The notes: a model not told the origin generated them from the sequence alone. Shown: positions 935-49,081, counted from the first letter of the stretch. The stretch is DNA of 64,000 bases from Phascolarctobacterium sp. (GCA_034117325.1 JAXEPX010000009.1:3208-67207), one strand, 5' to 3'. Made by a program: numbers and translations.

Positions 935-939
935 TAAGT

Positions 940-5754: not shown

Positions 5755-5763
5755 AATAATGCA

Positions 5764-6104: not shown

Positions 6105-6133
6105 TTGAAGTTCAAATTTGAATTTGATATAAT
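6105..6133 (+). promoter_or_regulatory. Efflux operon promoter with a palindromic operator in the spacer
   Basis: TTGAAG-17-TATAAT with extended TG; perfect 12-bp palindrome TTCAAATTTGAA at 6111-6122. Confidence 0.7.
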
Positions 6134-6200
6134 GAGGCTGGAACTTTTCGCTCAATTTATTATAAATAGATAAGCTACGAAGAGGAAAGGATGGCGTAAA

Positions 6201-7178: not shown

Positions 7179-7240
7179 GCTTACCTGCATAAAGCAAAGC
7201 TTTGACGCTAGGTTACAGTAGGTTTTAAGGATGGATACTT

Positions 7241-10112: not shown

Positions 10113-10113
10113 T

Positions 10114-11229: not shown

Positions 11230-11241
11230 GAGGTAGCTTTG

Positions 11242-11904
11242 ATGGAAAGTAAAGCAAATAGATGCAAGCGAGTTCCCCGAACTGATGGTACGGAGACACG
11301 CAAGCAGATAATTGAGTGTGCGGGCAAGCTGATTGCCCAAAAGGGCTTTGTGGCTACTACAAGCAAGGAAATCTGCCAAGAGCTGGGCATTAACTTAGCG
11401 GCGATAAATTATCATTTTGGCAGTCGTGATGGACTTTATGTCGAGATTTTAAGCAATGTGCATGATCATCTGCTGAGCTTGGATTTTTTAGAAGAGCTCG
11501 CAAGTGAGCAGCTGACACTCCAGCAACGGGTGGAGCAGCTGATTGGCTTTATTATTCATAAAGCCTGTATCGAGGAGGATTGGCAGCTACAGCTGTGGCT
11601 TAGGGAAATCGTTAGTGGTAATCCTCTGCTAGATAAGGTTATTGAAAAGACAGTCCTGCCTAAGCTCAAGCTAGTGCTCACGATTTTTGGCGCGTATTTT
11701 GAGCTTGCTCTCGATGATATGCGTCTGCATAGCCTGATTCAATGTCTGCTGGCCCCTGTTTTTTCCTTCATCATCGCTAGACAGCATAATGTACAGCGCT
11801 TATTGCCTGCGACGTATGATTTGCAGCATTTTGTAGAGCTGATGCAAGCAAATATACTTATCAATCTGCAGGCGCAAAGGGCTGCGCTAGCGGCTAAGCA
11901 CTAA
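11242..11904 (+). CDS. TetR-family regulator (CecR/YbiH-like)
   Basis: DGTETRKQII...KGF...INYHFGSRDGLY HTH; last gene of the efflux operon. Confidence 0.88.
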   Translation: MESKANRCKRVPRTDGTETRKQIIECAGKLIAQKGFVATTSKEICQELGINLAAINYHFGSRDGLYVEILSNVHDHLLSLDFLEELASEQLTLQQRVEQLIGFIIHKACIEEDWQLQLWLREIVSGNPLLDKVIEKTVLPKLKLVLTIFGAYFELALDDMRLHSLIQCLLAPVFSFIIARQHNVQRLLPATYDLQHFVELMQANILINLQAQRAALAAKH

Positions 11905-11929
11905 TAATGCGCAAGAATTTAAAACACTA

Positions 11930-11975
11930 TAAAAAAGCTGACTGCGTCCGTGTGAAAGACGTAGTCAGCTTTTTG
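11930..11975. terminator. Bidirectional terminator shared by tetR and ftsH, copy 2 of the direct repeat
   Basis: AAAAAAGCTGACTGCGTC-CGTGTGAAA-GACGTAGTCAGCTTTTT. Confidence 0.85.
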
Positions 11976-12004
11976 CTTTAGTATTTACTTAGCTTAACGC
12001 TTGC

Positions 12005-13861
12005 TTATGCTTCTTCTGCTTGCGCTTCAATTACTTCGCCCTGCTCTTCTTTTTTCAGCAGTGCCATGAATTGTTCGCCGGTAATAGTTTCCTTCTCCAG
12101 CAGGAAGTTCGCCAGCACGTCGAGCTTATCGCGGTTCTCGCTGAGAATTGCGCGTGCAGTCTCGTGTGCTTCCTTAATAATGGCGAGCACCTTTGCATCA
12201 ATGCGTCCAGCGGTCTCCTGACTGCAGGCGAGGGAGGTATCTCCGCCGAGGTATTGGTTCGTAACTACCTCGGTAGCCATCATGTCAAATTCCTCCGTCA
12301 TGCCGAGGCGGGTGACCATGCTGCGGGCAATCTTCGTCGCTTGCTCAATATCGTTCGCTGCGCCGCTGGTAATGCTGCCGAAGACAAGCTCCTCGGCCGT
12401 ACGGCCACCGGTAATGGTGACAATCTTATTGAAGAGCTCCTCCTTCTTCATCAGGACGGAGTCGTTATCATTGATCTGCATCGTATAGCCCAGTGCGCCA
12501 TTGGTGCGGGGGATAATGGTAATCTTATGTACGGGAGCGCTATTCTTCTGCATTGCAGCGACGAGGGCATGGCCAATCTCGTGGTAGGCGATAACGCGTT
12601 TTTCCTCGGGGCTGATGACTGCGCCCTTGCGTTGGTAGCCGGCGATAACAACCTCAATGGATTCTTCGAGGTCTGCCTGCTCAACAGTCTGACGCTGCAG
12701 CTTGACAGCACGCAGAGCACCTTCGTTAATAATATTCGCCAGCTCAGCGCCACTAGCACCAGCGGTAGCGCGGGCGAGAGCTTTATAATCAATATCGTCC
12801 GCCATTTTTACATCGCGGGCGTGTACCTTGAGAATGGCTTCACGACCTTGCAGGTCGGGCAGCTCCACGGGGATGCGACGGTCGAAACGACCGGGACGCA
12901 AGAGGGCTTTATCGAGGGATTCGGGCCTATTGGTAGCGGCGAGGATGACTACACCCTTACTGCCGTCAAAGCCGTCCATTTCGCTGAGCAGCTGGTTTAG
13001 CGTCTGTTCGCGCTCGTCATTGCCACCGAATTGGCCGCTGTCGCGACGCTTGCCGATGGCATCAATCTCGTCGATGAAGACGATGCAGGGGGCTTTTTCC
13101 TGTGCTTGCTTAAAGAGGTCGCGCACGCGGGCTGCGCCCATGCCGACGAACATTTCTACGAATTCACTGCCGCTGATGGAGAAGAAGGGAACCTTCGCCT
13201 CGCCGGCAACGGCCTTCGCTAGCAGAGTTTTACCAGTACCTGGAGGGCCTACGAGCAATGCGCCCTTGGGCATATTAGCGCCGATGGCCTTGTACTTGCC
13301 AGGGTTATGCAGAAAGTCTACAAGCTCCATCAGGGCTTCCTTCGCCTCGTCCTGACCGGCTACGTCGGCGAAGCTTTTACCAGTCTGCGCTTCGACGTAA
13401 ACCTTAGCATTACTCTTGCCAAAGGTCATGGCATTGCCACCGCCCATGCGCTTACTCATGAAGTACATGAAAAGCTGGCCCAGACCGAAGAAAATGAGGA
13501 TGGGTAGAATCCAGTTTTTAAAGATGCTGACGATGGCAGAGTCTTCCTTGGGGACTACTTGGGAGAAGGTAACCTTGCTCTTTAAGAGGCGGTCAGCCAT
13601 AAGGGGGTCTTCAACACGTCCGGTGACGTAGATTTCCTTTTCCTCACTGTCCTTGCCAAAGGCAGCAATACGCTTGTCGGTGATTTCAACCTTGGAAAGC
13701 TTGTTTTCGTCAATCATTTGCATGAAGGTGTTGTAGGGGACCTCATGCACCTTCGGGCTGAAGAAGGTGGGCATGATGACGGTGTTGATGAGCATGATAA
13801 TCAGCAGCGCCATGACGTAGTAGTAGAGCAGGGGCCGCTTTTTATTATTGTCGCTATGCAT
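12005..13861 (-). CDS. ftsH: ATP-dependent zinc metalloprotease FtsH
   Basis: Two TM segments, [26 protein letters not shown] and HEIGH zinc motif. Confidence 0.95.
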
Positions 13862-14047
13862 ACGTTCATCTCCTTATATTTTATTATGCTACTATTTTAC
13901 TATTATTAAGGGAAATACACAAATGAAAGTTTTGTAAACAAGTAAAACTGTACACCGCAAGAATACTTGTATACATTCCTCTCAGACCTTGCCAATCCGC
14001 GCGCTTTTATATACAATTATGCTTGTAACTGTAAAGGAGGTTCGACT

Positions 14048-17000
14048 ATGCCTAAAATTAACACAGTCCTAGTTGCTAACCGCGGCGAAATCGCCATTCG
14101 CGTCTTCCGCGCCTGCAATGAACTCGGTATTCGTACCGTCGCTATATATTCGAAAGAAGATACTCTCTCCCTGCACCGCAACAAAGCCGACGAGGCTTAC
14201 CAGGTAGGCGAGGGCAAGAGTCCTACCGATGCTTATCTTGACATTGAGGACATCATGCGCATTGCGCGTGAGCACGAGGTAGATGCTATCCACCCGGGCT
14301 ACGGCTTCCTCTCTGAAAATAGCAATCTGGCTCGCCGTTGCCAAGAAGAGGGCATCACCTTCATCGGTCCTCGTCTTGAGCATCTCATCATGTTCGGCGA
14401 CAAGATTAACGCTCGCAAACAGGCTGAGCTCGCCGGCATCCCCATGATTCCCGGCAGCAATGGCACCATAAATTCCATGCAAGAGGTGCTGGATTTTGGT
14501 GAAGCCTATGGCTATCCCATCATCATCAAGGCCGTTAATGGCGGCGGTGGTCGTGGCATGCGCGTGGTACACTCCGCTGAGGAGGCAATCACCGCCTACG
14601 ACATGGCTAAAAGCGAAGCGAAGAAGGCTTTTGGCAATGATGAAATTTATTTAGAAAAATATCTGCAAAATCCGAAGCATATCGAGGTCCAGATTATCGG
14701 CGACGAGCATGGCAATCTGATGCACCTCTTCGAGCGTGACTGCTCCGTACAGCGCCGTCACCAAAAGCTCGTTGAGATTGCGCCCGCCTTCTCCCTGCCC
14801 TTGGAGCAACGCAAGGCAATTTGTGAGGCTGCTGTGAAGCTGATGAAAAACGTTAATTACATCAGCGCCGGCACTGTTGAGTTCCTCGCTACCCCCGATG
14901 GCAAATTCTACTTTATCGAGGTTAACCCCCGCATTCAGGTAGAGCATACCGTTACCGAGCAAATCACTGGTATCGATATTGTGCAAGCGCAAATCAAGGT
15001 TGCCGAGGGCTACAGCCTGCACGGCCCTGAAATCGCTCTGCCCGAGCAGGACGAGCTGCACACCATTGGCCACGCTATTCAGTGCCGTATTACCACCGAG
15101 GATCCGTCCAATAACTTCATGCCCGACACTGGCAAGCTCATTACCTACCGCAGTGGTGGCGGTATGGGTATTCGTCTCGACGGCGGCAACGCTTTCACGG
15201 GCTCTGTTATTACTCCGTACTACGATTCCCTCCTGGTTAAGGCTACTACCTGGGGCCTGACCCATCAAATCGCAATTACCAAGATGCTGCGCTGCCTGAA
15301 GGAATTCCGTATCCGCGGCGTTAAGACTAATATTCAATTCCTGGAAAATGTGCTGCAAAACGAGCACTTTGTGAAGGGTGACTATACCACTGACTTCGTA
15401 GATACTACGCCCGAGCTTTTCGTCTTCCCGAAAACTCTGGACCGTGGCAATAAGCTCCTGCATTACATTGCCGATATCACCGTTAATGGTTATTCCAATG
15501 TGGGCGTACAGCCGAAGCCTGACTTCGCGCCGCTGAATATGCCGAAGCATTATAATGGCTTCCTGGCGCTGGGCGCTAAGCACATCCTCGATACCCAGGG
15601 CCCTGACGGCCTGGCTGAGTGGGTAATGGCTCAACAGGAGGTACTGGTAACCGATACCACCTTCCGTGATGCGCATCAATCCCTGTTCGCTACTCGTCTG
15701 CGTACTGCCGACATGCTGCGCGTAATGCGCGACACTGCTGGCAAGCTGCCCGGCTTCTTCTCCTTCGAATGCTGGGGCGGTGCGACCTTCGACGTAGCTT
15801 ATCGCTTCCTAGACGAAAGTCCTTGGCAGCGTTTGGCTCAATTCCGCGAGGCTGCACCCAATATCCTGCTGCAAATGCTGCTGCGCGGTGCGAACGCCGT
15901 GGGCTACACCAGCTATCCGGATAATGTTGTTAAGGAATTTATCAAATTGGCTGCGAAAAACGGCATCGACGTGTTCCGTATTTTCGATAGCCTGAATGGT
16001 CTCGATAATATGCGTCTGTCCATCGATACTGTCCGCGAAAGCGGCAAGGTGGCAGAGGCTGCTCTTTGCTACACGGGCGATATTCTTGATCCGCGTCGCG
16101 ATAAATACGATTTACAATACTATATTAATATGGCGAGGGAGCTGGAAAAAGCCGGCGCCAATATTATCGCCATTAAGGACATGGCAGGCCTCTTGAAGCC
16201 CGAGGCAGCATATCGCCTCGTAAGCAGCCTGAAGTCCTATGTGGGCGTGCCCATTCATCTGCATACGCACGAGGGCAGCGGTAACGCTATCTATACCTAC
16301 GCGCGTGCAATTGACGCAGGTGTCGACATTGTCGATACTGCGATGAGCTCCATGAGCTGTGGCACGAGCCAACCCTCCACCTCCAGCCTGTACTATGCGC
16401 TGAGCGGTCATCCGCGTCAACCGCGTCTGGATGTGGACTCTCTGAACGAAATGTCCCGCTATTGGGAGACTGTCCGCCCCTACTACAAGGCTGCGGATAG
16501 AACTGAGAATTTCCCGAATCCCGAGGTTTACTGCCATGAGATGCCGGGCGGCCAATATACCAATCTGAAGCAACAGGCACAGGCTCTGGGCCTCATGCAG
16601 CGTTGGGAAGAGGTCAAGGATATGTATCATCGCGTATCCATGATGTTTGGCGACCTGATTAAGGTTACTCCGTCCTCCAAGATTGTCGGCGATATGGCGC
16701 TCTTCATGGTGCAGAATGAGCTCTCCGAGGAGGATGTTTATGCTAAGGGCGATGTGCTGGACTTCCCGGCCTCCGTCGTAGAATTCTTTGAGGGACGTAT
16801 TGGTGTGCCCTACCAGGGCTTCCCTGAAAAGCTGCAGCAAATCGTGCTCAAGGGTCGCAAGCCCATTACCGAGCGTCCGGGTGCAGTGCTGCCGCCGGTT
16901 GATTTTGAAGCAGTACGCGAGAAGCTGAAGGAGATGAATGCTCCGACTACGGACGAGGCTGTAAGCTCCTATTGCCTGTATCCGAAGGTATTTACCGATT

Positions 17001-17494
17001 GGGTAACGCGTTATAATGAGTTTGGCGATGTTTCTGTGCTGGATTCTCCCACCTTCTTCTTCGGCATGACGCCGGGCGAGAAGATTAAGGTTGAGATTGA
17101 GCAGGGCAAGGTGCTGGTAATTAAGCTAGTACACGTTTCCGAGGCTAATGCTGCTGGCATGCGCACGGTAACCTTCGAGTTCAATGGTCTGCCGCGTGAG
17201 ATTCAGGTGAAGGATCGCAATGCGAAGGCTACGGAGGTAACCCGCAAGAAGGCGGATAAGTCTAATCTGGGCGAGATTGCTGCTTCCCTCTCTGGCTCCG
17301 TGGTGAAGGTGCTGGTGGAGAAGGGCCAGGCTGTGACGAAGGGCACGCCGCTCATCGTTACTGAGGCGATGAAGATGGAGACGACGCTGTCTGCGCCGCT
17401 CAGCGGTATCGTGAGCATTATTCACGTGGCTCCGGGCGAGCGCGTGGAGAGCGGGGACTGCCTGATGGAGATTAAGACGCAGGTGGACAAATAA
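14048..17494 (+). CDS. pyc: Pyruvate carboxylase (start ATG 14048 after AAGGAGG)
   Basis: ANRGEIA biotin carboxylase, RDAHQS carboxyltransferase, HEMPGGQYTNL, EAMKME biotin site. Confidence 0.97.
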   Translation: MPKINTVLVANRGEIAIRVFRACNELGIRTVAIYSKEDTLSLHRNKADEAYQVGEGKSPTDAYLDIEDIMRIAREHEVDAIHPGYGFLSENSNLARRCQEEGITFIGPRLEHLIMFGDKINARKQAELAGIPMIPGSNGTINSMQEVLDFGEAYGYPIIIKAVNGGGGRGMRVVHSAEEAITAYDMAKSEAKKAFGNDEIYLEKYLQNPKHIEVQIIGDEHGNLMHLFERDCSVQRRHQKLVEIAPAFSLPLEQRKAICEAAVKLMKNVNYISAGTVEFLATPDGKFYFIEVNPRIQVEHTVTEQITGIDIVQAQIKVAEGYSLHGPEIALPEQDELHTIGHAIQCRITTEDPSNNFMPDTGKLITYRSGGGMGIRLDGGNAFTGSVITPYYDSLLVKATTWGLTHQIAITKMLRCLKEFRIRGVKTNIQFLENVLQNEHFVKGDYTTDFVDTTPELFVFPKTLDRGNKLLHYIADITVNGYSNVGVQPKPDFAPLNMPKHYNGFLALGAKHILDTQGPDGLAEWVMAQQEVLVTDTTFRDAHQSLFATRLRTADMLRVMRDTAGKLPGFFSFECWGGATFDVAYRFLDESPWQRLAQFREAAPNILLQMLLRGANAVGYTSYPDNVVKEFIKLAAKNGIDVFRIFDSLNGLDNMRLSIDTVRESGKVAEAALCYTGDILDPRRDKYDLQYYINMARELEKAGANIIAIKDMAGLLKPEAAYRLVSSLKSYVGVPIHLHTHEGSGNAIYTYARAIDAGVDIVDTAMSSMSCGTSQPSTSSLYYALSGHPRQPRLDVDSLNEMSRYWETVRPYYKAADRTENFPNPEVYCHEMPGGQYTNLKQQAQALGLMQRWEEVKDMYHRVSMMFGDLIKVTPSSKIVGDMALFMVQNELSEEDVYAKGDVLDFPASVVEFFEGRIGVPYQGFPEKLQQIVLKGRKPITERPGAVLPPVDFEAVREKLKEMNAPTTDEAVSSYCLYPKVFTDWVTRYNEFGDVSVLDSPTFFFGMTPGEKIKVEIEQGKVLVIKLVHVSEANAAGMRTVTFEFNGLPREIQVKDRNAKATEVTRKKADKSNLGEIAASLSGSVVKVLVEKGQAVTKGTPLIVTEAMKMETTLSAPLSGIVSIIHVAPGERVESGDCLMEIKTQVDK

Positions 17495-17514
17495 GTGTCA
17501 TTTCTGCAAACAGC

Positions 17515-17592
17515 TTGCGCTAACCTTATGCAAGTGTTATACTAATTTCATATCCGAATCTACGAAAAGCAGCGGACTTACCGCTGCTTTTT
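17515..17592 (+). promoter_or_regulatory. Promoter followed within ~45 nt by an intrinsic terminator (candidate short RNA or attenuated leader)
   Basis: TTGCGC-17-TATACT with extended TG; AAAAGCAGCGG-ACTTA-CCGCTGCTTTTT at 17565-17592. Confidence 0.55.
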
Positions 17593-17626
17593 CAATATGA
17601 AAATTATTATCATTGCTATTAATGAA

Positions 17627-17801
17627 ATTCGCAATTAGTTATCAAACGCTCAGTGCGGCTTTTTTTACGCTCATTTCGTGGTGTTCAATAACGAAATCTC
17701 GCCAAACTCGCTAACGCTCAAACATGTCTCGATTTCTATTGAACAATCCACTCATTCGCTAAAAGCCGCAATCATTCGCTTATTGATTAACTAATTGCTC
17801 A
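17627..17801 (+). repeat. Family-1 ~175-bp palindromic element, copy A
   Basis: Ends ATTCGCAATTA...TAATTGCTCA; core ACGAAATCTCGCCAAACTCGCTAACGCTCAAACATGTCTCGATTTC shared with 34604-34777 and 43721-43890. Confidence 0.88.
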
Positions 17802-17837
17802 TTCTTCTTACTAACTGTTGCAAAAATTGTAAAGCTA

Positions 17838-17985
17838 TTCGGCAGCGAAGCGGTGATAATGGCAAAGCCCTTTTTTTGCGGAGCTTTTTTGGGCGAGCAA
17901 AAAAAGCGACGTTTCCCGCGCTTTCTAAAAGCGCGCACTTTCTTGCTTCTTCTTTGGTGACAAAGAAGAAGGATGAGAAGTAGAT
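17838..17985. repeat. REP-like double T-tract/A-tract hairpin stack
   Basis: CTTTTTT-GGGCGAGC-AAAAAAAG and CTTCTTCTTTG-GTGA-CAAAGAAGAAG hairpins; GCAGCGAAGCGG motif. Confidence 0.5.
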
Positions 17986-18029
17986 AAACAAAAAGATAAA
18001 CTCAGATTAAATTTCCTTTAAGGAGTCCC

Positions 18030-19586
18030 ATGCGAGAATCATTATATAATTATATCAAAAATCATATATATGACGACGGTGTGTTTACCGAGCCCGCGCT
18101 CCCTGATTTAGACGAGGCGTACAGCGTCATTCAGCTGGGGCAGAGTGACGCCTTTTTCTACACAGCCGACATGCCCAGTGATGTGGAGGATGCGAGCGCC
18201 ATTGTGACAGCCTTGCGCGAGTATCTCGCGGAGCCTGTGCAGGAAAAAAGGCAGAGCCTCTACCGCCTGTTGAAAAATAAGACGCTAGCCGAATACTGCG
18301 ATCCCTTTATCTCCACCTTCGATAGTGACGATATGAACGAGGTGGCCTTGGATTTGGCACGGCGCTTTTTATACAATGCCCGCCACCGCGAGCCCTTGAA
18401 GTTTGCGCTGCTCCTCTTTGGACTGTACGGTATGGAGCGCATCGAGCGCGAGGAGCCGGAGCTGTGGCAGGATTTGCTGCTGGTGGCGCACTGTGAGGAG
18501 TTTACCTTTGCCTTCCTCTATGCCTGCCGTAGCGGTAATTATATTTGCCAAAAGGCTGTCTGGGAGCTCCTAGGCTGCACGAAAGGCTGGGGCAAGGTCT
18601 TTTGCATTATCGATTGTCAATGTCCCGATGATGAGCACCGGCTGTGGCTCTTGAAAAATGGCCCCGATATCGAGGTTGAGTATCCGCCGCTAGCAGTGAA
18701 GCTCATTACTGCTACGCATTTGGGAGCTTTTCTAGAGCGTCCTGTGCTAGATTACGAGTGCTACAAGAATACCATTGCCATTGTGGGCAATTATATGCAG
18801 CTTCTTCTGCATTATCAGCCTGCGGCAGTGCGCGAAAATTATAATTTAGCAGATATTGATTTATATAAGCTGCTCAAGGCTATCCTGCACCATGCCCTGT
18901 ACTTATGCGTGGAGCCCGAGGATATGCTGGATATGCTGACGCTTGCTACGCTGCTGCGCCAGCTGCAGGAGGAGGGAGCATATTATTCCCTGTCCCCCAA
19001 TCAAATTCATGAGCTCATTGCGAGCTGCGATAGGCTGGTCTATAGCACTAATTGGGAGCCGCTGATCAAGGAGCGGGTAATTGACGAGGGTCAGATTAAT
19101 TATCGCCTGGCGGATTTTGCCTATGAGCTGGAGCTTGATATTTGGCCCATGCTGTACGATTTCTGGCTGGAGCACCCCGAGGAGTATACGCTGCTGCCGT
19201 ATTTATTGGCCTATGAGGGGGAGCGACGCTCCGTACTAGTGCTAGAGCAGCTGACGCTGAGGCTGAATTTATATCGTGCGGATATGCACTCCTTAATTGT
19301 ACCCCTGCATTATTTACGTAATAATCCAGGTAAGGGTGAGGCTATTGTGTGCGCGGCGCTGGAGTCGATTTTTGAGCTGGTGCGCAGCTGCGCCTGTGAT
19401 GTGCTGGAGGCCTGGGATAGGGAGTATTTTAGTCCGGCGATTATGGAGAGTATTGTCAAGGGCATGCATATGTGTACGGACGAGCTCTTGACTTTGCGCT
19501 TGAGGGCTTTGTATGTGAACGAGCGCTTTGATATGGAGGGCTTTATCCAGAAGCTGAAAAAGCAGCAGCGCGAGGATAGTAAATAA
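18030..19586 (+). CDS. Hypothetical, probably alpha-helical protein (518 aa)
   Basis: Long ORF with RBS AAGGAG; motifs HCEEFTFAF, TKGWGKV, WLLKNG; no function recognised. Confidence 0.75.
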   Translation: MRESLYNYIKNHIYDDGVFTEPALPDLDEAYSVIQLGQSDAFFYTADMPSDVEDASAIVTALREYLAEPVQEKRQSLYRLLKNKTLAEYCDPFISTFDSDDMNEVALDLARRFLYNARHREPLKFALLLFGLYGMERIEREEPELWQDLLLVAHCEEFTFAFLYACRSGNYICQKAVWELLGCTKGWGKVFCIIDCQCPDDEHRLWLLKNGPDIEVEYPPLAVKLITATHLGAFLERPVLDYECYKNTIAIVGNYMQLLLHYQPAAVRENYNLADIDLYKLLKAILHHALYLCVEPEDMLDMLTLATLLRQLQEEGAYYSLSPNQIHELIASCDRLVYSTNWEPLIKERVIDEGQINYRLADFAYELELDIWPMLYDFWLEHPEEYTLLPYLLAYEGERRSVLVLEQLTLRLNLYRADMHSLIVPLHYLRNNPGKGEAIVCAALESIFELVRSCACDVLEAWDREYFSPAIMESIVKGMHMCTDELLTLRLRALYVNERFDMEGFIQKLKKQQREDSK

Positions 19587-27755: not shown

Positions 27756-29923
27756 TTAGAATGCCCATTGAGCGTCGATGGCACCGCCGATACCGCGTTG
27801 CTTGCCGAGCCAACCGGTTACGTTGAAGTCCAGGCTCATGTTCTTGCCGGACTGCAGCTTGTAGCCAGCCTCGATAATTGCGCTGTGGCCCTGCAGGGAC
27901 GGAGTGGGAGACTCAATGCCGTTGATTGCAGCCTCTGCGTCGCCGCCGAATTCATACTGCCATGCCAGACCTGCGTACGCTGCACTCTTCTCGTTAATAT
28001 CGGAGGTGTAGCGGCCGCCCAGACGGATGCGGTGGGAGTTCAGAGAGTCGAAGTCCACTGCTTCGCCCGTAGCGAGAGTAGCGTCGGAGTCAGCGATATG
28101 GGTGAAGTAGTAACGGCCATAGAGGTCGAGGGAAGCCTTCTCCGTGTAGCTGATTTCCTTGCCTGCGCCGAGGGTGAGGCCGTAGTAGGTAGCACTGTCG
28201 TCGTAGCTGGTAGCTGCGGATTTGTAATCGCTCTTTACTCTGCCAGCACGCAGGCTTGCGTCATAGTGTACGCCGTTTGCGTTTTTAATCTGGCCAAAGA
28301 GTACGCCGCCGGTGGACTTAATATCGCCCTCGCCATGAACAGCGCCGACATAGGAGTCGTAGTCGCCCCTGCCATGCTCTACAGCTACGCCGTAGGTAGC
28401 ATTGCCAGCAGTCTTCGCAAAGCCCACTGCTGCGTTCCAGCCGTCCACATCCACATGGGAACCGGTCTCATAGCGGGAATTGCTGCCGCCCACTGCTACG
28501 AAAGGAGCGAACGCTGCGTCCTTATCCTCGCCTGCAGCTGCCTTAGCCTGCATCATACCGGAGCTCAGCATGAAGTCGGTCATATTGTTCACTACATAAC
28601 CTGCAACTGCGCGGGTCTCGACTACGGATTTACCGTTGTCGTTAACAGTCCCTTCGTGGATTTCTAGGTTGATAGACTTTTTATCTTCGGAGAGAGTAAG
28701 TTCAGCTTCGTAGGAAATGGTAGCGCCTTGATTGAGAGTGCGGGTTTTATTCTCTACGCTGTCAAAGCCATCAAATACACCGTCGGTATACTCATCATTA
28801 TCCAAAACATCCTCTAGATTTTCTTTGGCAATCAAAGCAATGGTCTTATTGGCTGCATTACCGCTAGTGCCTGCGAGAGTGATGTCGAATTTATTGGGAA
28901 TTTTTTCAGAAATAGATGTAGTATTATCATCTGAAATCTTTAGCATGGAGTCGCCATCAGTAAAGGGATTGGTGATAACAAAGTTTAAAGATTTTTCTGC
29001 CTCGATATCTCTAGCTTGATTGTTAAAGTTGGCAATATATAAATCGTCGCAACCATAAACGTGGTTTTTGATTATAGAGCCATTAGCGATAGCAATTTTG
29101 TTACCTGTAGCAGCACCGTTTTCAGAATAACCGCCGACAAGATTGTACCCTATCTTGGAATTTGATACGATAACTATGTTGTTATTGGCTGTTTTATCTG
29201 TTTCTTTAGAATAACCACCAAAAACTGAATCATCTGTTTTGGAGTCAATTATTTTAACAATGTTGCCGTTAGCGTTGCCCTTGTAAGAGATGCCGCATTT
29301 AATGTTGTATACAGTAGCGTTAGTAATGGTAACGGAGTTGCCATTAGCATCGCCCGTCCCCGCGGCATAGCCGCCATAAACCGTTTTTTCAACCTTAGCG
29401 CCATTAGTGATAGTAACAGAGTTGTCATTAGCATCGCCAGAGCCTTCAGCATAGCCGCCATAGACCGAATTAGTTACCTTTGAATTATTTATTTCCACAC
29501 TGTTACTGATAACATTACCAGCATCCACAGAACGTGCTCCCGAAACATAGTTGATTTCACTGCCGTTAGAAATAACAACATGGTTATTGGTAGCATCTCC
29601 TTTTATAACAAAGATACCATTAGTATAAGCAAGCTTAGAATTATTAATGATAACTTTGTAATTAGAGAGTTTGTCATTAGGGTCAGATGGTTTCCAGTAA
29701 GCAACCATGCCATAATCTTCATTTCCATCAATAGTGATGGTGTCTGCACTAATTGTTTTATTTGCATCAGGAATACCAGATGTTTCAGCTACGCCAGCCG
29801 CTTGCACCACGCCCGGTAGCACCACTGCAGATGAAAAAATACCAGCGAAAAATAGTTTAGTTATTTGCCCCCCCCCAATTTTCTTTGTGCTTGTTTTGCT
29901 TTTAATTTGCTTAAGAATGTCAT
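27756..29923 (-). pseudogene. Autotransporter (type Va) adhesin, frameshifted at a poly-G tract in the signal-peptide region (phase OFF)
   Basis: RBS AAGGAGG plus ATG 29923 runs into TAA after G9. G10 gives MTFLSKLKAKQAQRKLGGGQITKLFFAGIFSSAVVLPGVVQAA in frame with the 689-aa ORF. Beta-barrel ends ...IDAQWAF. Confidence 0.85.
29868..29876 (-). repeat. G9 homopolymer (candidate slipped-strand switch)
   Basis: Nine consecutive C on the + strand. Confidence 0.9.
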
Positions 29924-30237: not shown

Positions 30238-34597
<4,360 letters not shown>

Positions 34598-34603: not shown

Positions 34604-34777
34604 ATTCGCAAATTATATATCTCTTCAGTCAACTGAGATTTCTTAACGCGAATTTCGTTGGGAACAATTACGAAATCTCGACAAACTCGCTAACGCTCAA
34701 ACATGTCTCGATTTCTATTGTTCCATCAACTTATTCGCTAAAATCTCAATTCCTTCCGAGATATTATAATTTGCTCA
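34604..34777 (+). repeat. Family-1 palindromic element, copy B
   Basis: ATTCGCAAATTA...TAATTTGCTCA ends with the same core as copy A; arms differ but remain complementary. Confidence 0.88.
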
Positions 34778-34816
34778 ATTTAGTTTAGGAAGATTTTCCG
34801 AAAATAAATTGTTAGG

Positions 34817-41995: not shown

Positions 41996-42883
41996 ATGCT
42001 GGAAATGTTTGAAATGGAATTTATGCAGCGGGCTTGGCTGGCTGGCTTAATTATGGCCTTGATCTGCCCGCTCATTGGTAGCTTTCTCGTGCTGCGTCGT
42101 CAGTCCCTCATCGGTGACGGACTGGGGCATATCGCCTTTGCCGGTGTGGCCGGGGGCGCGCTGTGGGGCTATAGCCCTGTGCTAAGCGCGGCAGCGGCTA
42201 CCATTCTTGGTGCGCTGGCCATTGAAAGAGTGCGTGTGCGCTTAAGCGAGGCCGCAGATATGGTGCTGGCTATTTTTTTCTATAGTGGCATGGGCTTGGC
42301 AGTTGTTTTTACCGGACTTAATAAGGATGGTGGCTTTAATCTGGGCAGCATTCTTTTCGGCAGCTTGATGACGGTTAGCAGCAAGGACTTGGTAATTGTA
42401 GCCCTGCTAGCCTTATTTACCGTGCTTTTTGTGGTGCTTTTCTATCGTCCACTGCAATATTTGACCTTTGACGAGACCTCAGCGAAGGTAGCAGGCCTGC
42501 CAGTGGAGCGACTGAACCTGCTGCTGGCACTGCTGACAGCACTTACTGTGGCCCTTTCCATGCGCATCGTGGGCCTCTTACTCGTATCCGCCATGATGGT
42601 TATCCCCGTGGCCTGCGCTCTGCAGACGGCACGGAGCTTCGGCGGCACGATTATGCAAAGCATGCTCTATGGCCTGCTCACCGTGAGCCTGGGCCTAAGC
42701 ATTTCCTATTACATGAACCTCGCACCCGGTGGCACCATTGTGCTGATGGGAACGCTGCTCTTTTTGCTGAGCTGCCTAGTGGGCACGCGCGTAAGAACAG
42801 CTCAGCCCGTACCGGGACAATGCCAGTGCAAGGTCTGCGAGGAGGAGGCCGCAGAGGCTGGGAAAGAGGGGCTGGCTAAATGA
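41996..42883 (+). CDS. Metal ABC transporter permease (ZnuB-like)
   Basis: GDGLGHIAFAG, LFGS, VGLLLVSAMMVIP. Confidence 0.9.
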   Translation: MLEMFEMEFMQRAWLAGLIMALICPLIGSFLVLRRQSLIGDGLGHIAFAGVAGGALWGYSPVLSAAAATILGALAIERVRVRLSEAADMVLAIFFYSGMGLAVVFTGLNKDGGFNLGSILFGSLMTVSSKDLVIVALLALFTVLFVVLFYRPLQYLTFDETSAKVAGLPVERLNLLLALLTALTVALSMRIVGLLLVSAMMVIPVACALQTARSFGGTIMQSMLYGLLTVSLGLSISYYMNLAPGGTIVLMGTLLFLLSCLVGTRVRTAQPVPGQCQCKVCEEEAAEAGKEGLAK

Positions 42884-43701
42884 GTGTTCGAGCTGATTTA
42901 CACATCCACACCACTGCCTCCGACGGTACCTGGACACCGCGTGAGCTCATTGAGCAGGCGCAAGCAGTGGAGCTAGGTCTACTCGCCGTGACGGACCACG
43001 ATAGCGTGGTCAATGTAGCAGAGACGCAGCGCCTCGCTAAGGCTGCAGGACTCAAGTTTCTACCAGCGTCTGAAATATGCTCCACGAAGGAAGATATCTC
43101 CTTTCACATCCTGGGCTATGGCATCGACATCACGAATAAACACTTACTTGAGCTCATAAACCATAACGAAGACCTACTTGCACAAAAGGATGTCGATAGC
43201 ATTCGTCTGCTTGAACGTGACGGCTGGCCTGTAGATAGCCTGGAATTCACTCGTTATGATTACGACAGACGACGCGGGGGCTGGCGAGCACTCGCCTACC
43301 TAATAGACAAGGGCCTCTGCACAGACGTCAACGACTTCTTCAAGCGCATCTTCACGCCTGAGCACGACCTAGGCTTTCCTGAATTTCCGCCCATTTCGCA
43401 GGTCGTAGACGCTATCCACGGCGCTGGTGGGGTAGCCATTTGCGCTCATGCAGCCAGTGGCTTCCATGGACCTGGACTAGAGCGCGTCATGGACATCCTG
43501 CGCGTCGAAAGCTTCGACGGCTTCGAATGCTACCACAGTGGTCACAACGAAGCAGGCACCCAACGCCTGCTCGCACACTGCCGCAAGCACGACCTCATGA
43601 TCACAGGCGGTAGCGACTGCCACGGCACCTTCGTGCCAGGACGCCGCCTCGGCGAGCCTTATGTAGATACCAGCATGCTTAGATTAGACGGATTGCTTTA
43701 A
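42880..43701 (+). CDS. PHP-domain phosphoesterase (YciV/TrpH-like)
   Basis: DLHIHTTASDG, TDHD, AHA, TGGSDCHG. Confidence 0.9.
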   Translation: MSVRADLHIHTTASDGTWTPRELIEQAQAVELGLLAVTDHDSVVNVAETQRLAKAAGLKFLPASEICSTKEDISFHILGYGIDITNKHLLELINHNEDLLAQKDVDSIRLLERDGWPVDSLEFTRYDYDRRRGGWRALAYLIDKGLCTDVNDFFKRIFTPEHDLGFPEFPPISQVVDAIHGAGGVAICAHAASGFHGPGLERVMDILRVESFDGFECYHSGHNEAGTQRLLAHCRKHDLMITGGSDCHGTFVPGRRLGEPYVDTSMLRLDGLL

Positions 43702-43720
43702 AAAGAACTCTATAGTAGCT

Positions 43721-43890
43721 TGAGCAATTATAAAAATACGGAGCGAATAGGAATTTTAGCACATAAGTGCATGGTTCAATAGAAATTGAGCCATGTTTGA
43801 GCGAAGCGAGTTTGGCGAAATTTCGTAATTGAACCGCACGAAATGGGCGTCAGAAATTCCTGTTGAGCGCAGTATTTTATAATTGCGAAT
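43721..43890 (-). repeat. Family-1 palindromic element, copy C (inverted)
   Basis: Reverse complement reads ATTCGCAATTA...TACGAAATTTCGCCAAACTCGCTTCGCTCAAACATGGCTCAATTTC...TAATTGCTCA. Confidence 0.88.
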
Positions 43891-43991
43891 ATAATATGTA
43901 TAGCAAACAACAGTAAAACGAAGCATGTTTATAATGACGAATCTAGAAATTACATACATACATACTTATTTACTCTCGGAGGTAGAACACA

Positions 43992-45119
43992 ATGGAAAAA
44001 TCTAAAGTATACTTCACCGACTTCCGCACCAAACCCGGTGGCGCAAGCATGCCACAAAAACTCCAAAAACTCGCCCAAAAAGCAGGCATCGCCAACATCG
44101 ACTTCGAAAACAAATTCGTAGCCATCAAAATCCACTTCGGCGAACTCGGTAACATCTCCTACCTGCGTCCCAACTACGCCAAAGCCGTAGTCGACCTCGT
44201 CAAAAAACTTGGCGGCCGTCCCTTCCTCACCGACTGCAACACCCTCTACGTAGGCAGCCGCAAACACGCACTAGAACACATGGACACCGCCTACGAAAAC
44301 GGCTTCAGCCCCTTCTCAACCGGCTGCCACGTTATCATCGCTGACGGCCTCAAGGGCACCGACGAAGCCTACGTACCTGTTAAAAACGGCGAACTCGTTC
44401 AAGAAGCAAAAATCGGCCGTGCCATCATGGACGCCGACATCGTCATCAGCCTCAACCACTTCAAGGGCCACGAAATGGCTGGCTTCGGCGGCGCGTTGAA
44501 AAACCTTGGCATGGGCAGCGGCTCCCGCGCCGGAAAAATGGAAATGCATAACGATGGCAAACCCAAAGTAAACCAAAAGAAATGCATCGGCTGCGGCCGT
44601 TGCGTCAATATCTGCGCCCATGGTGCGCCCAGCATCACCGAGCGCAAGGCTACTATCGACATCAATAAATGCGTGGGCTGTGGTCGCTGCCTTGGCCTGT
44701 GTCCTGTTGACGCCATCCATACCCTCTACGACGCAAGCATGGACAACCTTAACAAAAAAATGGCCGAATATGCGCAAGCAGTCTGCCAGGACCGTCCTAG
44801 CTTCCACATCAGCCTCATCGTCGACGTATCTCCCTACTGCGACTGCCATGCTGAAAATGATGCACCCATCGTGCCCAATATCGGCATGCTGGCCTCCTTC
44901 GACCCCGTGGCACTTGACCAAGCCTGCGCTGATCTCGTTAACGCTGCACCTGCTGTAGCTAACTCCGTACTGGGCGAGCATCTGACTGCAGACCCCGAAG
45001 GCTGCCAGGGTCATGACCATTTCCATAATACTACGCCTGAATCCGAATGGAAGATGTGCCTTGAGCATGCAGAAAAGATTGGCGTAGGTATGCGCGAGTA
45101 CGAACTTATTAAGATGTGA
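43992..45119 (+). CDS. DUF362-domain protein with a 2x[4Fe-4S] ferredoxin insert
   Basis: KIHFGE, HFKGH...GGALKNLGMG, CIGCGRC...C and CVGCGRC...C, DPVALD. Confidence 0.88.
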   Translation: MEKSKVYFTDFRTKPGGASMPQKLQKLAQKAGIANIDFENKFVAIKIHFGELGNISYLRPNYAKAVVDLVKKLGGRPFLTDCNTLYVGSRKHALEHMDTAYENGFSPFSTGCHVIIADGLKGTDEAYVPVKNGELVQEAKIGRAIMDADIVISLNHFKGHEMAGFGGALKNLGMGSGSRAGKMEMHNDGKPKVNQKKCIGCGRCVNICAHGAPSITERKATIDINKCVGCGRCLGLCPVDAIHTLYDASMDNLNKKMAEYAQAVCQDRPSFHISLIVDVSPYCDCHAENDAPIVPNIGMLASFDPVALDQACADLVNAAPAVANSVLGEHLTADPEGCQGHDHFHNTTPESEWKMCLEHAEKIGVGMREYELIKM

Positions 45120-45220
45120 AATCGTTTATAAGGCATCATCTACTTCGTCATCGCTCCTAAGAGTACTAATCTGTACGCCGTCGTCGCGATTTCTCGTATC
45201 TGATGCCTTCTGAACGATTT
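45119..45220 (+). repeat. Family-2 palindromic 3' element, copy 2
   Basis: Aligns with 940-1040 with compensated stems. Confidence 0.82.
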
Positions 45221-45371
45221 CTAAGATATGTTTTCCGAAAATTTTCTAGAAATTCACGAAAAATGTTCGACTTTTTTGTCAGCCTGTGATATTATATTAC
45301 AGTAATATTGCAAAGCTTACACTTTTGGAGAAATTTTAGTTTGCGAAAGAAAAATTAGGAGGCTTATTTCA

Positions 45372-46247
45372 ATGCAAGAATACAAACCCTTTAAATCCGG
45401 TAAGGTTCGTGAAATGTATGATATTGGTGATAGCATCGTTATGGTTGCTACCGACCGCATCTCTGCTTTCGACGTTATTTTAAAAAATGATATCAAGAAA
45501 AAAGGCACCGTGCTGACCCAAATCTCCAAATTCTGGTTCGATTTTACCAGCGACATCGTGCCCAACCATATGCTCTCCGTAGACGTAAAGGATATGCCTG
45601 AATTCTTCCAAAAAGAGGAGTTCACCGGTAACAGCATGAAATGCAAAAAGCTGGAAATGCTGCCCGTAGAATGCATCGTACGCGGCTACATCACCGGTAG
45701 CGGCTGGTCCAGCTACAAAAAAAGTGGCGAAATCTGCGGTATTAAGCTGCCCGAAGGCCTCGAAGAATGCCAAAAGCTGCCGGAGGTACTCTTCACTCCT
45801 AGCACCAAGGCTGAAATCGGCGACCATGACGAAAATATCAGCGTAGAGCAAAGCATTGAAATCCTCGAGAAGCTCTATCCCGGTCGTGGCAAGGAATACG
45901 CTCTGAAGCTTAGAGATTATACCATTGCTATTTACAAAAAATGTGCTGACTATGCTCTGTCCCGTGGCATCATCATCGCTGACACCAAATTCGAATTTGG
46001 TCTGGATGAGAACGGCGAGGTTGTACTGGGCGACGAAATGATCACCCCCGACTGCTCCCGCTTCTGGCCGCTGGAGGGCTATGAAGTTGGTCATGACCAA
46101 CCCTCCTACGATAAGCAATTCGTACGTAATTGGCTGAAGGAAAACCCGGATTCCGATTACAAGCTGCCGCAAGAGGTTATTGATAAGACCATCGGCAAAT
46201 ATATCGAGGCTTATGAAAAGCTGACCGGCAAAGAATTCAACTTCTAA
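45372..46247 (+). CDS. purC: SAICAR synthetase
   Basis: SGKVRE, ATDRISAFD, ECIVRGY, ADTKFEFG, SRFW, DKQFVR. Confidence 0.96.
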   Translation: MQEYKPFKSGKVREMYDIGDSIVMVATDRISAFDVILKNDIKKKGTVLTQISKFWFDFTSDIVPNHMLSVDVKDMPEFFQKEEFTGNSMKCKKLEMLPVECIVRGYITGSGWSSYKKSGEICGIKLPEGLEECQKLPEVLFTPSTKAEIGDHDENISVEQSIEILEKLYPGRGKEYALKLRDYTIAIYKKCADYALSRGIIIADTKFEFGLDENGEVVLGDEMITPDCSRFWPLEGYEVGHDQPSYDKQFVRNWLKENPDSDYKLPQEVIDKTIGKYIEAYEKLTGKEFNF

Positions 46248-46670: not shown

Positions 46671-46705
46671 ATGCGTAAAATACGGCTTAAGACTTATATT
46701 TATGC

Positions 46706-46745
46706 AAAAAAGAGAAGCAGCTGGTGGTAAGCTGCTTCTCTTTTT
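46706..46745. terminator. Bidirectional terminator at the cysK 3' end
   Basis: A5-AGAGAAGCAGC...GCTGCTTCTC-T5. Confidence 0.85.
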
Positions 46746-46810
46746 GAAATGGGATGTGTATTATCTTATAGATAGGGAAGACCTATAATGCAAATTAAAT
46801 TGCTGGCTGC

Positions 46811-47743
46811 TTAGTCCGTGAAGAGCGGAGTGGACAGGTAGCGGTCGCCCGTGTCTGGCAGGAGGACAACTATGGTCTTGCCTTTGTTTTCAGGGCGTTT
46901 AGCAATTACGGTAGCTGCATAGAGGGCTGCGCCGCTGGAGATACCTACGAGTACGCCTTCCTTGTGGGCAATAGCGCGACCGGTAGCAAAGGCGTCCTCT
47001 GCTTCTACAGGAATGATTTCATCGTAAATTTTCGTATTCAGGGTGTCAGGCACGAAGCCTGCGCCAATGCCCTGAATTTTATGCGGACCGGCGATACCCT
47101 TAGACAGCACAGGGCTGGTGGAGGGCTCTACGGCTACAACCTTCACATTCGGATTCTGGGCTTTCAGATATTCGCCAGTGCCGGAAAGCGTGCCGCCGGT
47201 GCCAACGCCGGCTACGAAGAAGTCTACTTGGCCATCGGTATCAGCCCAGATTTCCGGACCGGTAGTAGCTCTGTGGACAGCGGGGTTAGCAGGGTTGGTG
47301 AATTGACCGGGGATGAAGCTGCCCGGTGTAGCTGCTGCCAGCTCCTCGGCCTTAGCGATAGCGCCCTTCATGCCTTTAGCTCCGTCGGTGAGTACGAGCT
47401 CGGCACCGTAGGCCTTTAGCAGATTGCGACGCTCCACGCTCATGGTTTCGGGCATGGTGAGGATGATTTTGTAGCCGCGAGCTGCAGCTACGCTAGCGAG
47501 ACCAATGCCGGTGTTGCCGCTGGTGGGCTCAATAATAGTAGCCCCCGGCTTTAAGAGATCCTTAGCCTCTGCGTCGTCCAGCATGGCCTTGGCGATTCTA
47601 TCCTTAACACTGCCTGCAGGATTGAAATATTCCAGCTTAGCGAGAATTTTTGCTTCCAGCTTGTTTTCCTTTTCATAATTAACGAGTTCTACCAGCGGGG
47701 TACCGCCGATCAGTTGAGTAATGCTAGTATATACCTTTGCCAT
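46811..47743 (-). CDS. cysK: Cysteine synthase A
   Basis: [12 protein letters not shown] lysine, [33 protein letters not shown]. Confidence 0.96.
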
Positions 47744-47902
47744 AATTTATCGCTCCTTATAAAGTAATTTTTACCTATTTTCTTAAGCTCTTTTTTATAA
47801 TTGTTAATTGTGATTGACGTAGCAACATCGTGTACCAGGTTTCAGCATTGTAAGAACCTCACTTTGATTAATATCTAGTATTCATAGCTGATTGATAGGT
47901 TT

Positions 47903-47984
47903 ATTATACATCGCTGTGAGCAGATGTCAATAGTTTTTTGCAAAAATATCTGAACTTGACAAGGGAAGAGTTTTAATGTAATAT
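47903..47984. promoter_or_regulatory. Back-to-back sigma70 promoters for cysK (-) and the hydE-like gene (+)
   Basis: Minus strand TTGACA(47930-25)-16-TATAAT(47908-03); plus strand TTGACA(47956-61)-17-TAATAT. Confidence 0.7.
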
Positions 47985-48025
47985 ATGAAACATATTAAAG
48001 CACTAGGAATTATGGAGGTGAGTTC

Positions 48026-49081
48026 ATGAGTGGAGTGGCAGCTTTAATAGCTAAATTGGCGCAGAAGCATGATTTGACTGATGCGGAGCTACTTGAAGTG
48101 ATTACAAGTGAGGAAGCGGGAACGAATGCGCTCCTTGCTACGGAGGCGGATAAGCTACGCCGCAAGTATTATGGAAATAAGGTCTATATCCGCGGGCTCA
48201 TTGAATTCACTAATTACTGTAAAAATAATTGCTACTACTGCGGCATTCGCGCGGGTAATAAATGCGCGCAGCGCTATCGCCTGACTCAGGAGCAGATTCT
48301 TGCCTGCTGTAGGGAGGGCTATAGGTTGGGCTTTAGGACCTTCGTGCTGCAGGGGGGTGAGGACCCCTATTTTACAGATGAGCGCGTGTGCGAGCTTGTG
48401 GCGGCGATTCGCAAGCAGCATCCTGATTGCGCGATTACGCTTTCTATAGGCGAGAAGGAGCGTGCTAGCTATGCGGCCTATTTTGCGGCGGGAGCTAATC
48501 GTTATCTTTTGCGCCACGAGACGGCGACGGACGAGCATTATAAAATGCTGCACCCGGAGAGCATGAGCCTTGCAAACCGCAAGCGCTGCCTTTTTGATTT
48601 GAAGGATATCGGCTACCAGGTGGGCAGTGGCTTTATGGTGGGCTCGCCGTATCAGAGGCCGGAGCATTTGCTCGCGGATCTTCGCTTTTTGCAGGAGCTC
48701 GAGCCTGATATGATTGGCATCGGACCCTATATTACCCATGCGGAGACGCCCTTTGCGAAGCAGAAGAGTGGTACGGCGGAGCAGACGCTGCGCTTGCTCT
48801 CGATGCTGCGCTTATTATTTCCCTATGCGCTTTTGCCTGCGACGACGGCGCTAGGAACGATTACGCCCGATGGGCGCGAGCGCGGACTGCAGGCGGGGGG
48901 CAATGTGGTAATGCCTAATCTGTCGCCTGTGGACGTGCGCAAGCTGTACGACCTGTATGAGAACAAGCTTTGCACAGATGAGGAGGCGGCGCAGTGCCGC
49001 AGCTGTCTGGAGGCCCGCGTGCGGAGTGTGGGCTACGAAATCGTCACTGATAGGGGCGATGTGGCACGGAATGTGGTATAA
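48026..49081 (+). CDS. hydE: HydE-like radical SAM protein (biotin synthase/HydE/PylB family)
   Basis: TNYCKNNCYYC, QGGED, LLRHET, PATTALG, GNVVMPN, YDLYENK. Confidence 0.85.
   Translation: MSGVAALIAKLAQKHDLTDAELLEVITSEEAGTNALLATEADKLRRKYYGNKVYIRGLIEFTNYCKNNCYYCGIRAGNKCAQRYRLTQEQILACCREGYRLGFRTFVLQGGEDPYFTDERVCELVAAIRKQHPDCAITLSIGEKERASYAAYFAAGANRYLLRHETATDEHYKMLHPESMSLANRKRCLFDLKDIGYQVGSGFMVGSPYQRPEHLLADLRFLQELEPDMIGIGPYITHAETPFAKQKSGTAEQTLRLLSMLRLLFPYALLPATTALGTITPDGRERGLQAGGNVVMPNLSPVDVRKLYDLYENKLCTDEEAAQCRSCLEARVRSVGYEIVTDRGDVARNVV

Follow-up and report, generated by a model that had tools for sequence, protein, structure and literature searches.

Vertebrate mitochondrial genes have A/C-rich third codon positions with G near 4%, a bias attributed to C>T and A>G changes on the heavy (H) strand, which is single-stranded for long periods, and one that scales with exposure. 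Kataegis at resected breaks and the somatic hypermutation zones of AID are likewise strand-coordinated and focal, extend over kilobases, decay with distance and consist of deamination-type transitions. Replication strand asymmetry, finally, leaves one strand of a bacterial chromosome G+T-rich at weakly selected sites. Here, we analysed a 64,000-nt stretch of DNA from Phascolarctobacterium sp. (GCA_034117325.1 JAXEPX010000009.1:3208-67207), called the window throughout, in which the third-position strand skew is reversed over 1.7 kb in two adjacent genes, encoding a PHP-domain protein and a DUF362 protein. Between the two genes lies copy C of an intergenic hairpin repeat termed family 1. A preliminary description of this DNA had proposed that the oriented element may nucleate a strand bias in its flanks, with a sign that follows its orientation.

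The tract at copy C shares features with each of these systems. Its third-position composition is that of the mitochondrial H-strand gradient; its scale, strand coordination, focal origin and transition types recall kataegis and AID zones; and it complements the strongest leading-strand regions. Unlike the mitochondrial gradient, it lies on a bacterial chromosome and decays to both sides of one point over ~1 kb, and we know of no strand-displacement replication at such a bacterial locus. Resection at breaks affects opposite strands on the two sides, whereas the tract has the same sign on both; it also represents an evolutionary equilibrium rather than a burst, with 1 single-nucleotide polymorphism (SNP) between conspecific contigs, and no deaminase was identified. 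Compared with replication strand asymmetry, nothing is inverted, the tract is short, cusp-shaped and placed inside genes, its third-position G content is 4%, and no lagging-strand gene in 1.1 Mb of related sequence matches its amplitude.

Keto skew, (G+T-A-C)/N, was computed at third codon positions (keto3) on the + strand. In a sliding frame of 60 codons, keto3 averages +0.15 over the window (standard deviation (sd) 0.22). For comparison we used 905 genes from 1.1 Mb of related metagenomic loci; the window locus itself occurs in pig-gut metagenomes, with 98-99% of its k-mers present in runs X1-X5, and the names of its homologues point to Phascolarctobacterium/Acidaminococcaceae. Because the genes of the window lie mostly on the + strand and the cumulative GC skew climbs across it, the + strand is probably the leading strand. 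The features around copy C are as follows.

42880-43701, + strand: PHP-domain gene, whose 3' half turns C/A-ending
43263-44927, both sides of copy C: core of reversed keto3 skew (maximum-likelihood segment), with tails into znuB and purC
43715-43890, - strand (orientation of the preliminary description): copy C of the family-1 hairpin, an insertion when compared with close relatives
43792-43814, - strand: apical core of copy C, CAAACTCGCT-N-CGCTCAAACATG; the + strand reads CATGTTTGAGCGAAGCGAGTTTG and includes GCGAAGC
43891-43991, + strand: non-coding spacer and DUF362 5' leader, A-rich and G/T-poor, with promoter-like hexamers
43992-45119, + strand: DUF362 gene with a 2x[4Fe-4S] insert, most strongly biased in its first 170 codons

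Third positions between 43263 and 44927, a segment covering the PHP 3' half and DUF362 up to about codon 310, have a keto fraction of.24 versus.55 outside (two-change-point fit; log-likelihood ratio (LLR) 69.7) and a composition of C.63, A.25, T.08 and G.04. The keto3 minimum of the whole window (-0.83, at 44117) falls in the 5' region of DUF362, and only three + strand genes are clearly negative (PHP -0.25, DUF362 -0.45, purC -0.14). Among 50 intergenic gaps, the one with copy C comes last; its skew of -0.61 is 4.4 sd under the mean. Measured against the 905 genes of relatives, where the first percentile is -0.50, DUF362 contains the most negative 100-codon stretch (-0.84). Its codons 1-170 have a keto3 skew of -0.73, with AAA/GAA/CAA at 93%. 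The earlier count of 90 C/A-ending codons among its first 100, with one non-Met G, is reproduced exactly (C 62, A 28, T 6 and G 4, the last being 3 ATG and 1 CTG). The reported trend toward C/A-ending codons at the 3' end of the PHP gene also holds, keto3 running from -0.05 in the first third to -0.43 in the last.

A two-sided exponential decay describes this profile better than a step, with log-likelihoods (lnL) of -1149.1 and -1168.4, respectively, a gain of 19.3. The fitted centre is at 44081 (2-lnL support roughly 43,830-44,190), with decay lengths of 960 bp (left) and 1370 bp (right), a baseline keto fraction of.65 and a drop of.58 at the centre; the tails cover the mildly lowered skew of the znuB 3' end and of purC. 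In a fixed-width cusp scan of the whole window, the LLR reaches 86.8 at copy C, while the next strongest features stand at ~25. The centre of the cusp thus lies within ~200 bp of the right end of the element, at the DUF362 start. The anomaly at copy C is genuine, extreme and unexplained by the usual causes.

The gene order znuA-znuC-znuB-PHP-DUF362-purC, all on one strand, is the same in the window and its close relatives (including L126-L130 and L162), whose DUF362 is 86-90% identical to that of the window. Where the element is missing, the PHP-DUF362 spacer measures 27 bp (L127, L128, L162) or 72 bp (L129, L130), and the skew there is positive in both the DUF362 5' part (+0.15 to +0.39) and PHP (+0.18 to +0.37). 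Since these relatives are syntenic, lack the element and have positive skew, nothing was inverted, the element was inserted, and the reversal arose on the window lineage. In the flanking genes, ~45% of synonymous sites already differ from those of the nearest relative, which leaves ample time for a gradual build-up of the reversal; a burst is not required.

Tract sites that carry G or T in relatives are A or C in the window in 81-86% of cases, and 76-84% of the A/C sites are unchanged. We polarised substitutions where the relatives agree, on an unrooted tree. On the window lineage, DUF362 codons 1-170 acquired T>C 31 times, G>A 9, G>C 7 and T>A 3 times, with 2 changes in the reverse direction C>T; PHP codons 131-273 acquired 18 T>C and 5 G>A changes, with a single C>T. 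Polarisation of the flanking substitutions, which had been suggested beforehand, thus shows changes that remove G and T to dominate in both gene parts. The keto content of codon positions 1 and 2 has no tract-specific shift, a comparison of low power. Third-position identity to L126 is.37-.41 in the tract and.54-.66 in the flanks; amino-acid identity to L126 is.85/.95 inside and.91/.92/.87 outside, and relatives rank alike in both. Conspecific contigs are 99.7% identical with 1 SNP across 42691-46041, which is uninformative on ongoing hypermutation at compositional equilibrium. As a separate observation, diversity between the conspecific contig L001 and the window is uneven and lowest over the anomalous tract, with that 1 SNP in the first 3.3 kb (42691-46041) and ~28 differences in the next 2.4 kb (46676-49050).

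To place the codon choices of the tract, we used as proxies those + strand genes of the window that are putatively highly expressed: glnA, amtB-PII, the 2-oxoacid:ferredoxin oxidoreductase alpha/beta genes (korAB), purC and pyc. They prefer CTG (.61), GCT (.56), GTT/GTA, GGC/GGT (GGT.34), ACC/ACT, CGT and AAG (.62), unlike the tract, which uses CTC (.64), GCC (.59), GGC (.88), ACC (1.0) and AAA (.86). The earlier argument that avoidance of CTG, GGT and GCT speaks against expression bias holds within this genome, as the proxy genes favour just those codons. The part of PHP inside the tract is enriched in CTA (.30), CGA (.20), GGA (.17) and ACA (.40), which the proxy genes almost never use; such a gain of rare A-ending codons is what G>A pressure predicts. 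Outside codons, the non-coding spacer (114 nt beside the element) has a keto fraction of.39, the lowest of 33 intergenic regions (mean.523 +/-.043). The codon usage of the tract is an exaggerated form of that of the - strand genes of the window, for example in choosing CTC over CTG, and its end composition roughly complements that of the strongest + regions (G.47-.50, T.23-.25, C.19-.21, A.07). All 52 two-fold pyrimidine-ending and Ile codons end in C, and 17% of the four-fold codons keep T; the survivors are CGT, GTT, GCT and GGT, that is, locally preferred codons. These survivors, and the use in DUF362 of C-ending rather than rare A-ending codons, are put down to residual translational selection. 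Taken together, the bias looks nucleotide-level, strand-specific and mutational rather than the product of translational optimisation.

Family 1, the repeat at the centre of the tract, is an imperfect palindrome of ~175 nt with three intergenic copies in the window (DNA fold z = -4.2), and its k-mer depth, 8-40x that of its flanks, marks it as multi-copy, with an estimated 10-40 copies in the genome. Its core, CAAACTCGCT-N(1-2)-CGCTCAAACATG (22-23 nt; 17703-17726, 34682-34705 and 43792-43814 in the window), is found exactly in at least 120 genomic loci across phyla (loci L006-L125), with hosts among Comamonadaceae, Luteimonas, Collimonas, Clostridium, Elusimicrobia, Thermotogaceae, Planctomycetia, Nitrospira, a bacterium of the Candidate Phyla Radiation and others. 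Among the matches listed, the core always sits at the apex of a long hairpin with species-specific arms. The 8-bp stem beside it is 77-98% Watson-Crick, with all four pair types and covariation, and stem position 8 is a G.T pair, possible on one strand only, in 41 of 121 elements. The strand reading CATGTTTGAGCG-N-AGCGAGTTTG folds more stably in 103 of 115 elements under DNA parameters and in 111 of 121 under RNA parameters, and by 3.8-7.0 kcal/mol at copies A, B and C. Within the window, the more stable fold belongs to the - strand at A and B, but to the + strand at C, in sense with PHP/DUF362, so that the fold of copy C would lie on the coding strand, the probable lagging-strand template. 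In stable-strand orientation, elements follow a co-oriented gene more often than not (46:19) and precede a convergent gene in a ratio of 56:26.

Family 1 resembles the repetitive extragenic palindromic (REP) sequences and bacterial interspersed mosaic elements (BIME), the enterobacterial repetitive intergenic consensus (ERIC) and repeats like miniature inverted-repeat transposable elements in being an imperfect, intergenic, multi-copy palindrome mostly located downstream of genes or between convergent genes. It differs from REP/BIME and ERIC in its identical core across phyla, its covarying stems and the lack of a recurrent transposase or RAYT, and we know of no report of a local effect on skew in those families. 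Hirao and co-workers reportedly described d(GCGNAGC) in the 1990s as an extraordinarily stable DNA mini-hairpin. The centre of the stable strand here is likewise GCG-N-AGC or GCG-NN-AGC with N free; unlike the mini-hairpin, it caps a ~170-nt hairpin within a conserved mirror-symmetric 23-mer and may act as DNA or as RNA. Rfam gave no gathering-score match in the window, and in five loci of other phyla no match at the element reached E <= 1. The core is absent from 2.9 million viral contigs, the element had no match in plasmid and phage BLAST searches, and its sequence string was not found in a literature search. Within 2.5 kb of 132 copies, no protein family recurs apart from open reading frames (ORFs) overlapping the repeat. 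A profile search with nhmmer found no further family-1 copies in the 1.1 Mb of relatives, and an apparent copy in L142 proved to be a spurious motif match inside a gene.

The family sometimes forms arrays spaced 320-430 bp (L073, L024, L060, L051). The repeat is also modular, as some relatives share the outer arms but have another centre without the core, or have a core split by an insert of ~37 nt (L126:4586-4775 and 111-300, L207:54-220, L209:338-504, L213:5591-5798); one of these occupies the same PHP-DUF362 spacer as copy C in the opposite orientation.

The two other copies in the window offer a comparison within the same background.

17629-17809, + strand: family-1 copy A, after pyc, without a distinct local skew feature
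34608-34785, + strand: family-1 copy B, after ligA, with a moderate positive cusp that is missing at orthologous junctions without the element

A mirror image of the pattern at copy C had been described around these + copies. We did not recover it as a distinct feature: the gap of copy A ranks 11th of 50 (cusp LLR 1.5), and that of copy B, although 2nd of 50 (cusp LLR ~16), lies inside a broad high region. The underlying count is correct, with 37 of codons 25-74 of the 34900 gene ending in G or T (G 28, T 9), and the reported switch in codon endings toward the 3' end is present in pyc (G-ending.61 to.85) and absent from ligA (.78 to.74). Features as strong as that at copy B occur away from any element, at 27450 (+15.6) and 31200 (-25.6). 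A 5'-to-3' rise in keto3 is general, averaging +0.087 and positive in 22 of 31 + genes, and the 18030 gene rises by +0.37 without an element downstream. The negative cusp near 31200 (LLR 25.6) belongs to pcrA (30238-32499), which has a low keto3 of +0.03 versus +0.23 to +0.38 in relatives and a repeat-free vicinity.

Lineages that differ in the presence of an element provide two further natural experiments. At the junction between ligA and the next gene, the cusp coefficient is +1.19 in the window, with copy B, versus -0.52 and -0.22 in relatives without the element (L210/L211, which have a 41-bp spacer, and L213). At the pcrA-ligA junction, L213 carries a + oriented variant with split core and has a coefficient of +0.81, with +0.33 in the element-free L210 and -0.83 in the window. 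The element-bearing lineage thus has the most positive cusp at 2/2 junctions, and both agree with the rule that sign follows orientation, to which they lend modest support. For copy A, the comparison came out differently. In L215, L216 and L218, the orientation of amtB and glnA with respect to pyc and its downstream neighbour is opposite to that at window positions 89-19586, and the pyc 3' end reads -0.2 to -0.5 versus +0.5 in the window. This contrast shows cleanly how weakly constrained codons follow the replication strand. With amtB and glnA inverted in this way, the pyc locus of those relatives lies on the keto-poor + strand, and the mirrored sign at the pyc spacer therefore means that the copy A region simply mirrors the replication background. 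In L218, the spacer after pyc holds a different 208-nt palindrome (L218:3948-4155) with a GCGAAGC centre, whose + strand folds 3.8 kcal/mol better.

In our preferred reading, to which we assign a probability of roughly 35%, the tract records a long-lasting, focal and strand-specific substitution bias with its source at or beside copy C, acting through a nick or gap and resynthesis. Apart from the insertion, no lineage-specific change is visible at the locus, and the sign of the skew fits the orientation rule. The hairpin on the + strand at copy C, the probable lagging-strand template and the non-template strand of PHP and DUF362, would regularly be extruded and would then be recurrently nicked or leave a gap in the + strand. 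From copy C, DNA could be excised and resynthesised in both directions, in tracts of ~1 kb. Meanwhile, the exposed - strand would gather C-to-U and A-to-hypoxanthine deamination, and/or the + strand would always be taken as the strand to correct, with mismatch correction aimed at the interrupted strand; damage on the - strand would then turn up in the + strand as G>A and T>C. Copies A and B would fold best on the - strand, which is rarely single-stranded, and as any effect there would have the same sign as the replication background, it would be weak and hard to see. Such a nick or gap model fits the sign, symmetry and length scale of the cusp. Two variants were rejected: resection of double-strand breaks at the hairpin predicts opposite signs on the two sides, where the same sign is seen, and exposure of the + strand, whether by sense transcription or by a gap in the lagging template, would give the wrong sign.

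Several observations weigh against this reading. The cusp centre lies ~270 bp from the hairpin apex and 200-300 bp to the right of the core, closer to the DUF362 start; copy C is the only strong case; and no nickase, deaminase or transposase is associated with the element. Agreement at both junctions would arise by chance with a probability of ~1/9, per-gene skew drifts between lineages for unrelated reasons (pcrA.03 in the window,.23-.38 in relatives), and relatives without any family-1 element show, in the spacer after pyc, an equally strong feature of opposite sign (-1.04, -1.27). In the L126/L207 lineage, a related + oriented element, with the same arms, another centre and no core, sits in the same PHP-DUF362 spacer, and the + type-2 copies of L207/L209 have ordinary flanks (PHP last 105 codons +0.14, DUF362 ~0). 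A PHP skew of +0.54 in L126 could be taken as support for an effect of the + copy; we discarded it, as the sister L209 with the same insertion reaches +0.14. Across 124-132 core-sharing elements from other phyla there is no orientation-dependent peak, whether all sites or third positions are taken (near minus far +0.006 +/- 0.009); none appears in either background-skew class, and orientations relative to that skew split 30:30. Amino-acid changes of the type K>M:M>K number 16:10 in the tract versus 46:34 in controls, without a K>M excess, in a comparison of low power on an unrooted tree. Finally, DUF362 orthologues are the most C-ending gene of the neighbourhood in several other lineages, which suggests moderately high expression; expression level perhaps contributes -0.3 of the effect, not -0.9.

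The proposal that the oriented element nucleates the bias therefore stands in part. A lineage-specific focal cusp does lie beside the insertion, and its dependence on orientation has one strong case. Comparison with lineages lacking the element favours the proposal at copy C, copy B and L213 and disfavours it at copy A and in L207/L209, and aggregation of the other-phyla copies among the matches listed, which had been suggested as a check, yields no orientation-dependent peak. As a property of the repeat in general, orientation dependence is suggestive at best, and copy A as well as distant family members speak against it. A further-reaching possibility, less likely than not, is that a chromosomal hairpin repeat is a point source of strand-specific mutagenesis that rewrites the synonymous sites of its neighbours in an orientation-dependent manner.

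The evidence of mutational character would fit equally well a locus-specific, strand-asymmetric mutation that the element does not cause, such as lineage-specific antisense transcription with R-loops that expose the - strand and reinforce themselves through its G-richness. Close to the right end of the element, the - strand has promoter-like sites directed into the element and PHP, the element family is without general effect, and from the coordinates we estimate a ~9% chance that a unique 1.7-kb tract holds one of the three copies. We still consider this origin unlikely, because a single transcript should leave a one-sided profile instead of a two-sided cusp, the most strongly affected part, that in DUF362, has no predicted antisense promoter to its right, and relatives without the insertion are also without the anomaly. 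Selection for G/U-poor, unstructured mRNA on both sides of the hairpin would account for a cusp centred on hairpin and leader, and for synonymous and non-coding positions being affected while amino-acid positions show no excess. Copy C alone of the three has its stable strand transcribed in sense inside an operon, and the 46:19 preference of the family for a place after a co-oriented gene is what a 3'-untranslated RNA element would show. Many sense-oriented family members elsewhere nevertheless lack such flanks, a C-rich and G-poor RNA would look like a Rho loading site and bring no obvious advantage, and 1-1.4 kb is, as far as we know, far beyond expectation for folding insulation or start-codon accessibility; we regard this explanation as rather improbable.

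Translational selection would require that DUF362 be highly expressed in the window lineage, for example from a promoter in the terminal repeat of the element, and recoded to optimal codons. The 52 of 52 C-ending two-fold pyrimidine and Ile codons, the 93% of AAA/GAA/CAA and the T-ending survivors CGT, GTT, GCT and GGT agree with this, and DUF362 stands out in other lineages too (L190, minimum -0.68; L197, L138, L180). It is made very improbable by the CTC, GCC, GGC and AAA of the tract, so unlike the CTG.61, GCT.56, GGT.34 and AAG.62 of the proxy genes, by the involvement of the PHP 3' half and the spacer, with rare codons, and by the fading of the bias inside DUF362; metatranscriptome contigs, a weak data set that is sparse and unstranded, give DUF362 a depth of ~1 versus 6-16 for purC. 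A recombination patch that brought in the element from a related lineage under opposite strand bias would explain why the element is lineage-specific, why third-position identity to L126 drops in the tract (.37-.41, flanks.54-.66) and why the left boundary of the step model is narrow (43257-43287). The exponential cusp, however, is 19 lnL better than that step, neither protein identity nor the nearest relative (L126) changes between tract and flanks, and 0 of 80 orthologous loci come close, including those on the other strand, where ordinary lagging-strand copies reach -0.25 to -0.38. A donor would also need the same unexplained local process; an imported patch has only a slim chance. Both a recent inversion and a general 5'-to-3' codon gradient had been raised as alternatives in the preliminary description, and inversions are the classic cause of local skew reversal. 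Conserved gene order and strand in all close relatives exclude an inversion, and the boundaries of the anomaly fall inside PHP and DUF362; the weak 5'-to-3' rise is real, yet at +0.087 on average far too small, and PHP runs the opposite way. The probability left to either is practically nil.

If the link between hairpin and tract is causal, small intergenic repeats would act as local mutators of the codon usage and GC skew of their flanks. Codon-usage outliers and skew anomalies usually taken as signs of horizontal gene transfer, inversion or high expression would then need rereading, hairpin processing, gap repair and strand discrimination in Negativicutes could be studied in a natural setting, and the process would be a bacterial counterpart, on an evolutionary timescale, of kataegis or mitochondrial strand asymmetry. 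If it is not causal, a kilobase of a conserved operon can still reach a mitochondrion-like one-strand composition without rearrangement, which current explanations of bacterial strand asymmetry do not predict. The element family, with its invariant 23-nt core and covarying stems in many phyla and its absence from Rfam, merits study by itself.

DUF362 also carries long - strand ORFs at 43950-44267 and 44316-45068, which follow its codon-for-codon antisense frame. We rejected an overlapping antisense gene, as these ORFs have no Pfam hits and were opened by the loss of TTA, CTA and TCA codons, of which they are a by-product. A second hairpin repeat of ~100 nt (AATCG..TATAAGGC..GTACGCCGTCGTCG..CCTTCT..ACGATT) is present at 941-1040 and 45125-45225, directly after the stop codons of the glutamine-synthetase gene and DUF362, respectively. 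It has no Rfam match and a very high k-mer depth in pig-gut runs. With copy C on its 5' side and this repeat on its 3' side, DUF362 is thus bracketed by two different hairpin repeats. Elsewhere in the window, two terminator-like hairpins of 96% identity (AAAAAAGCTGACT.CGTC...GACGTAGTCAGCTTTTT) lie 6.2 kb apart at 5763-5808 and 11929-11974, and a - strand gene of 689 aa contains an 84-bp tandem duplication (78% identity) at 29320-29480.

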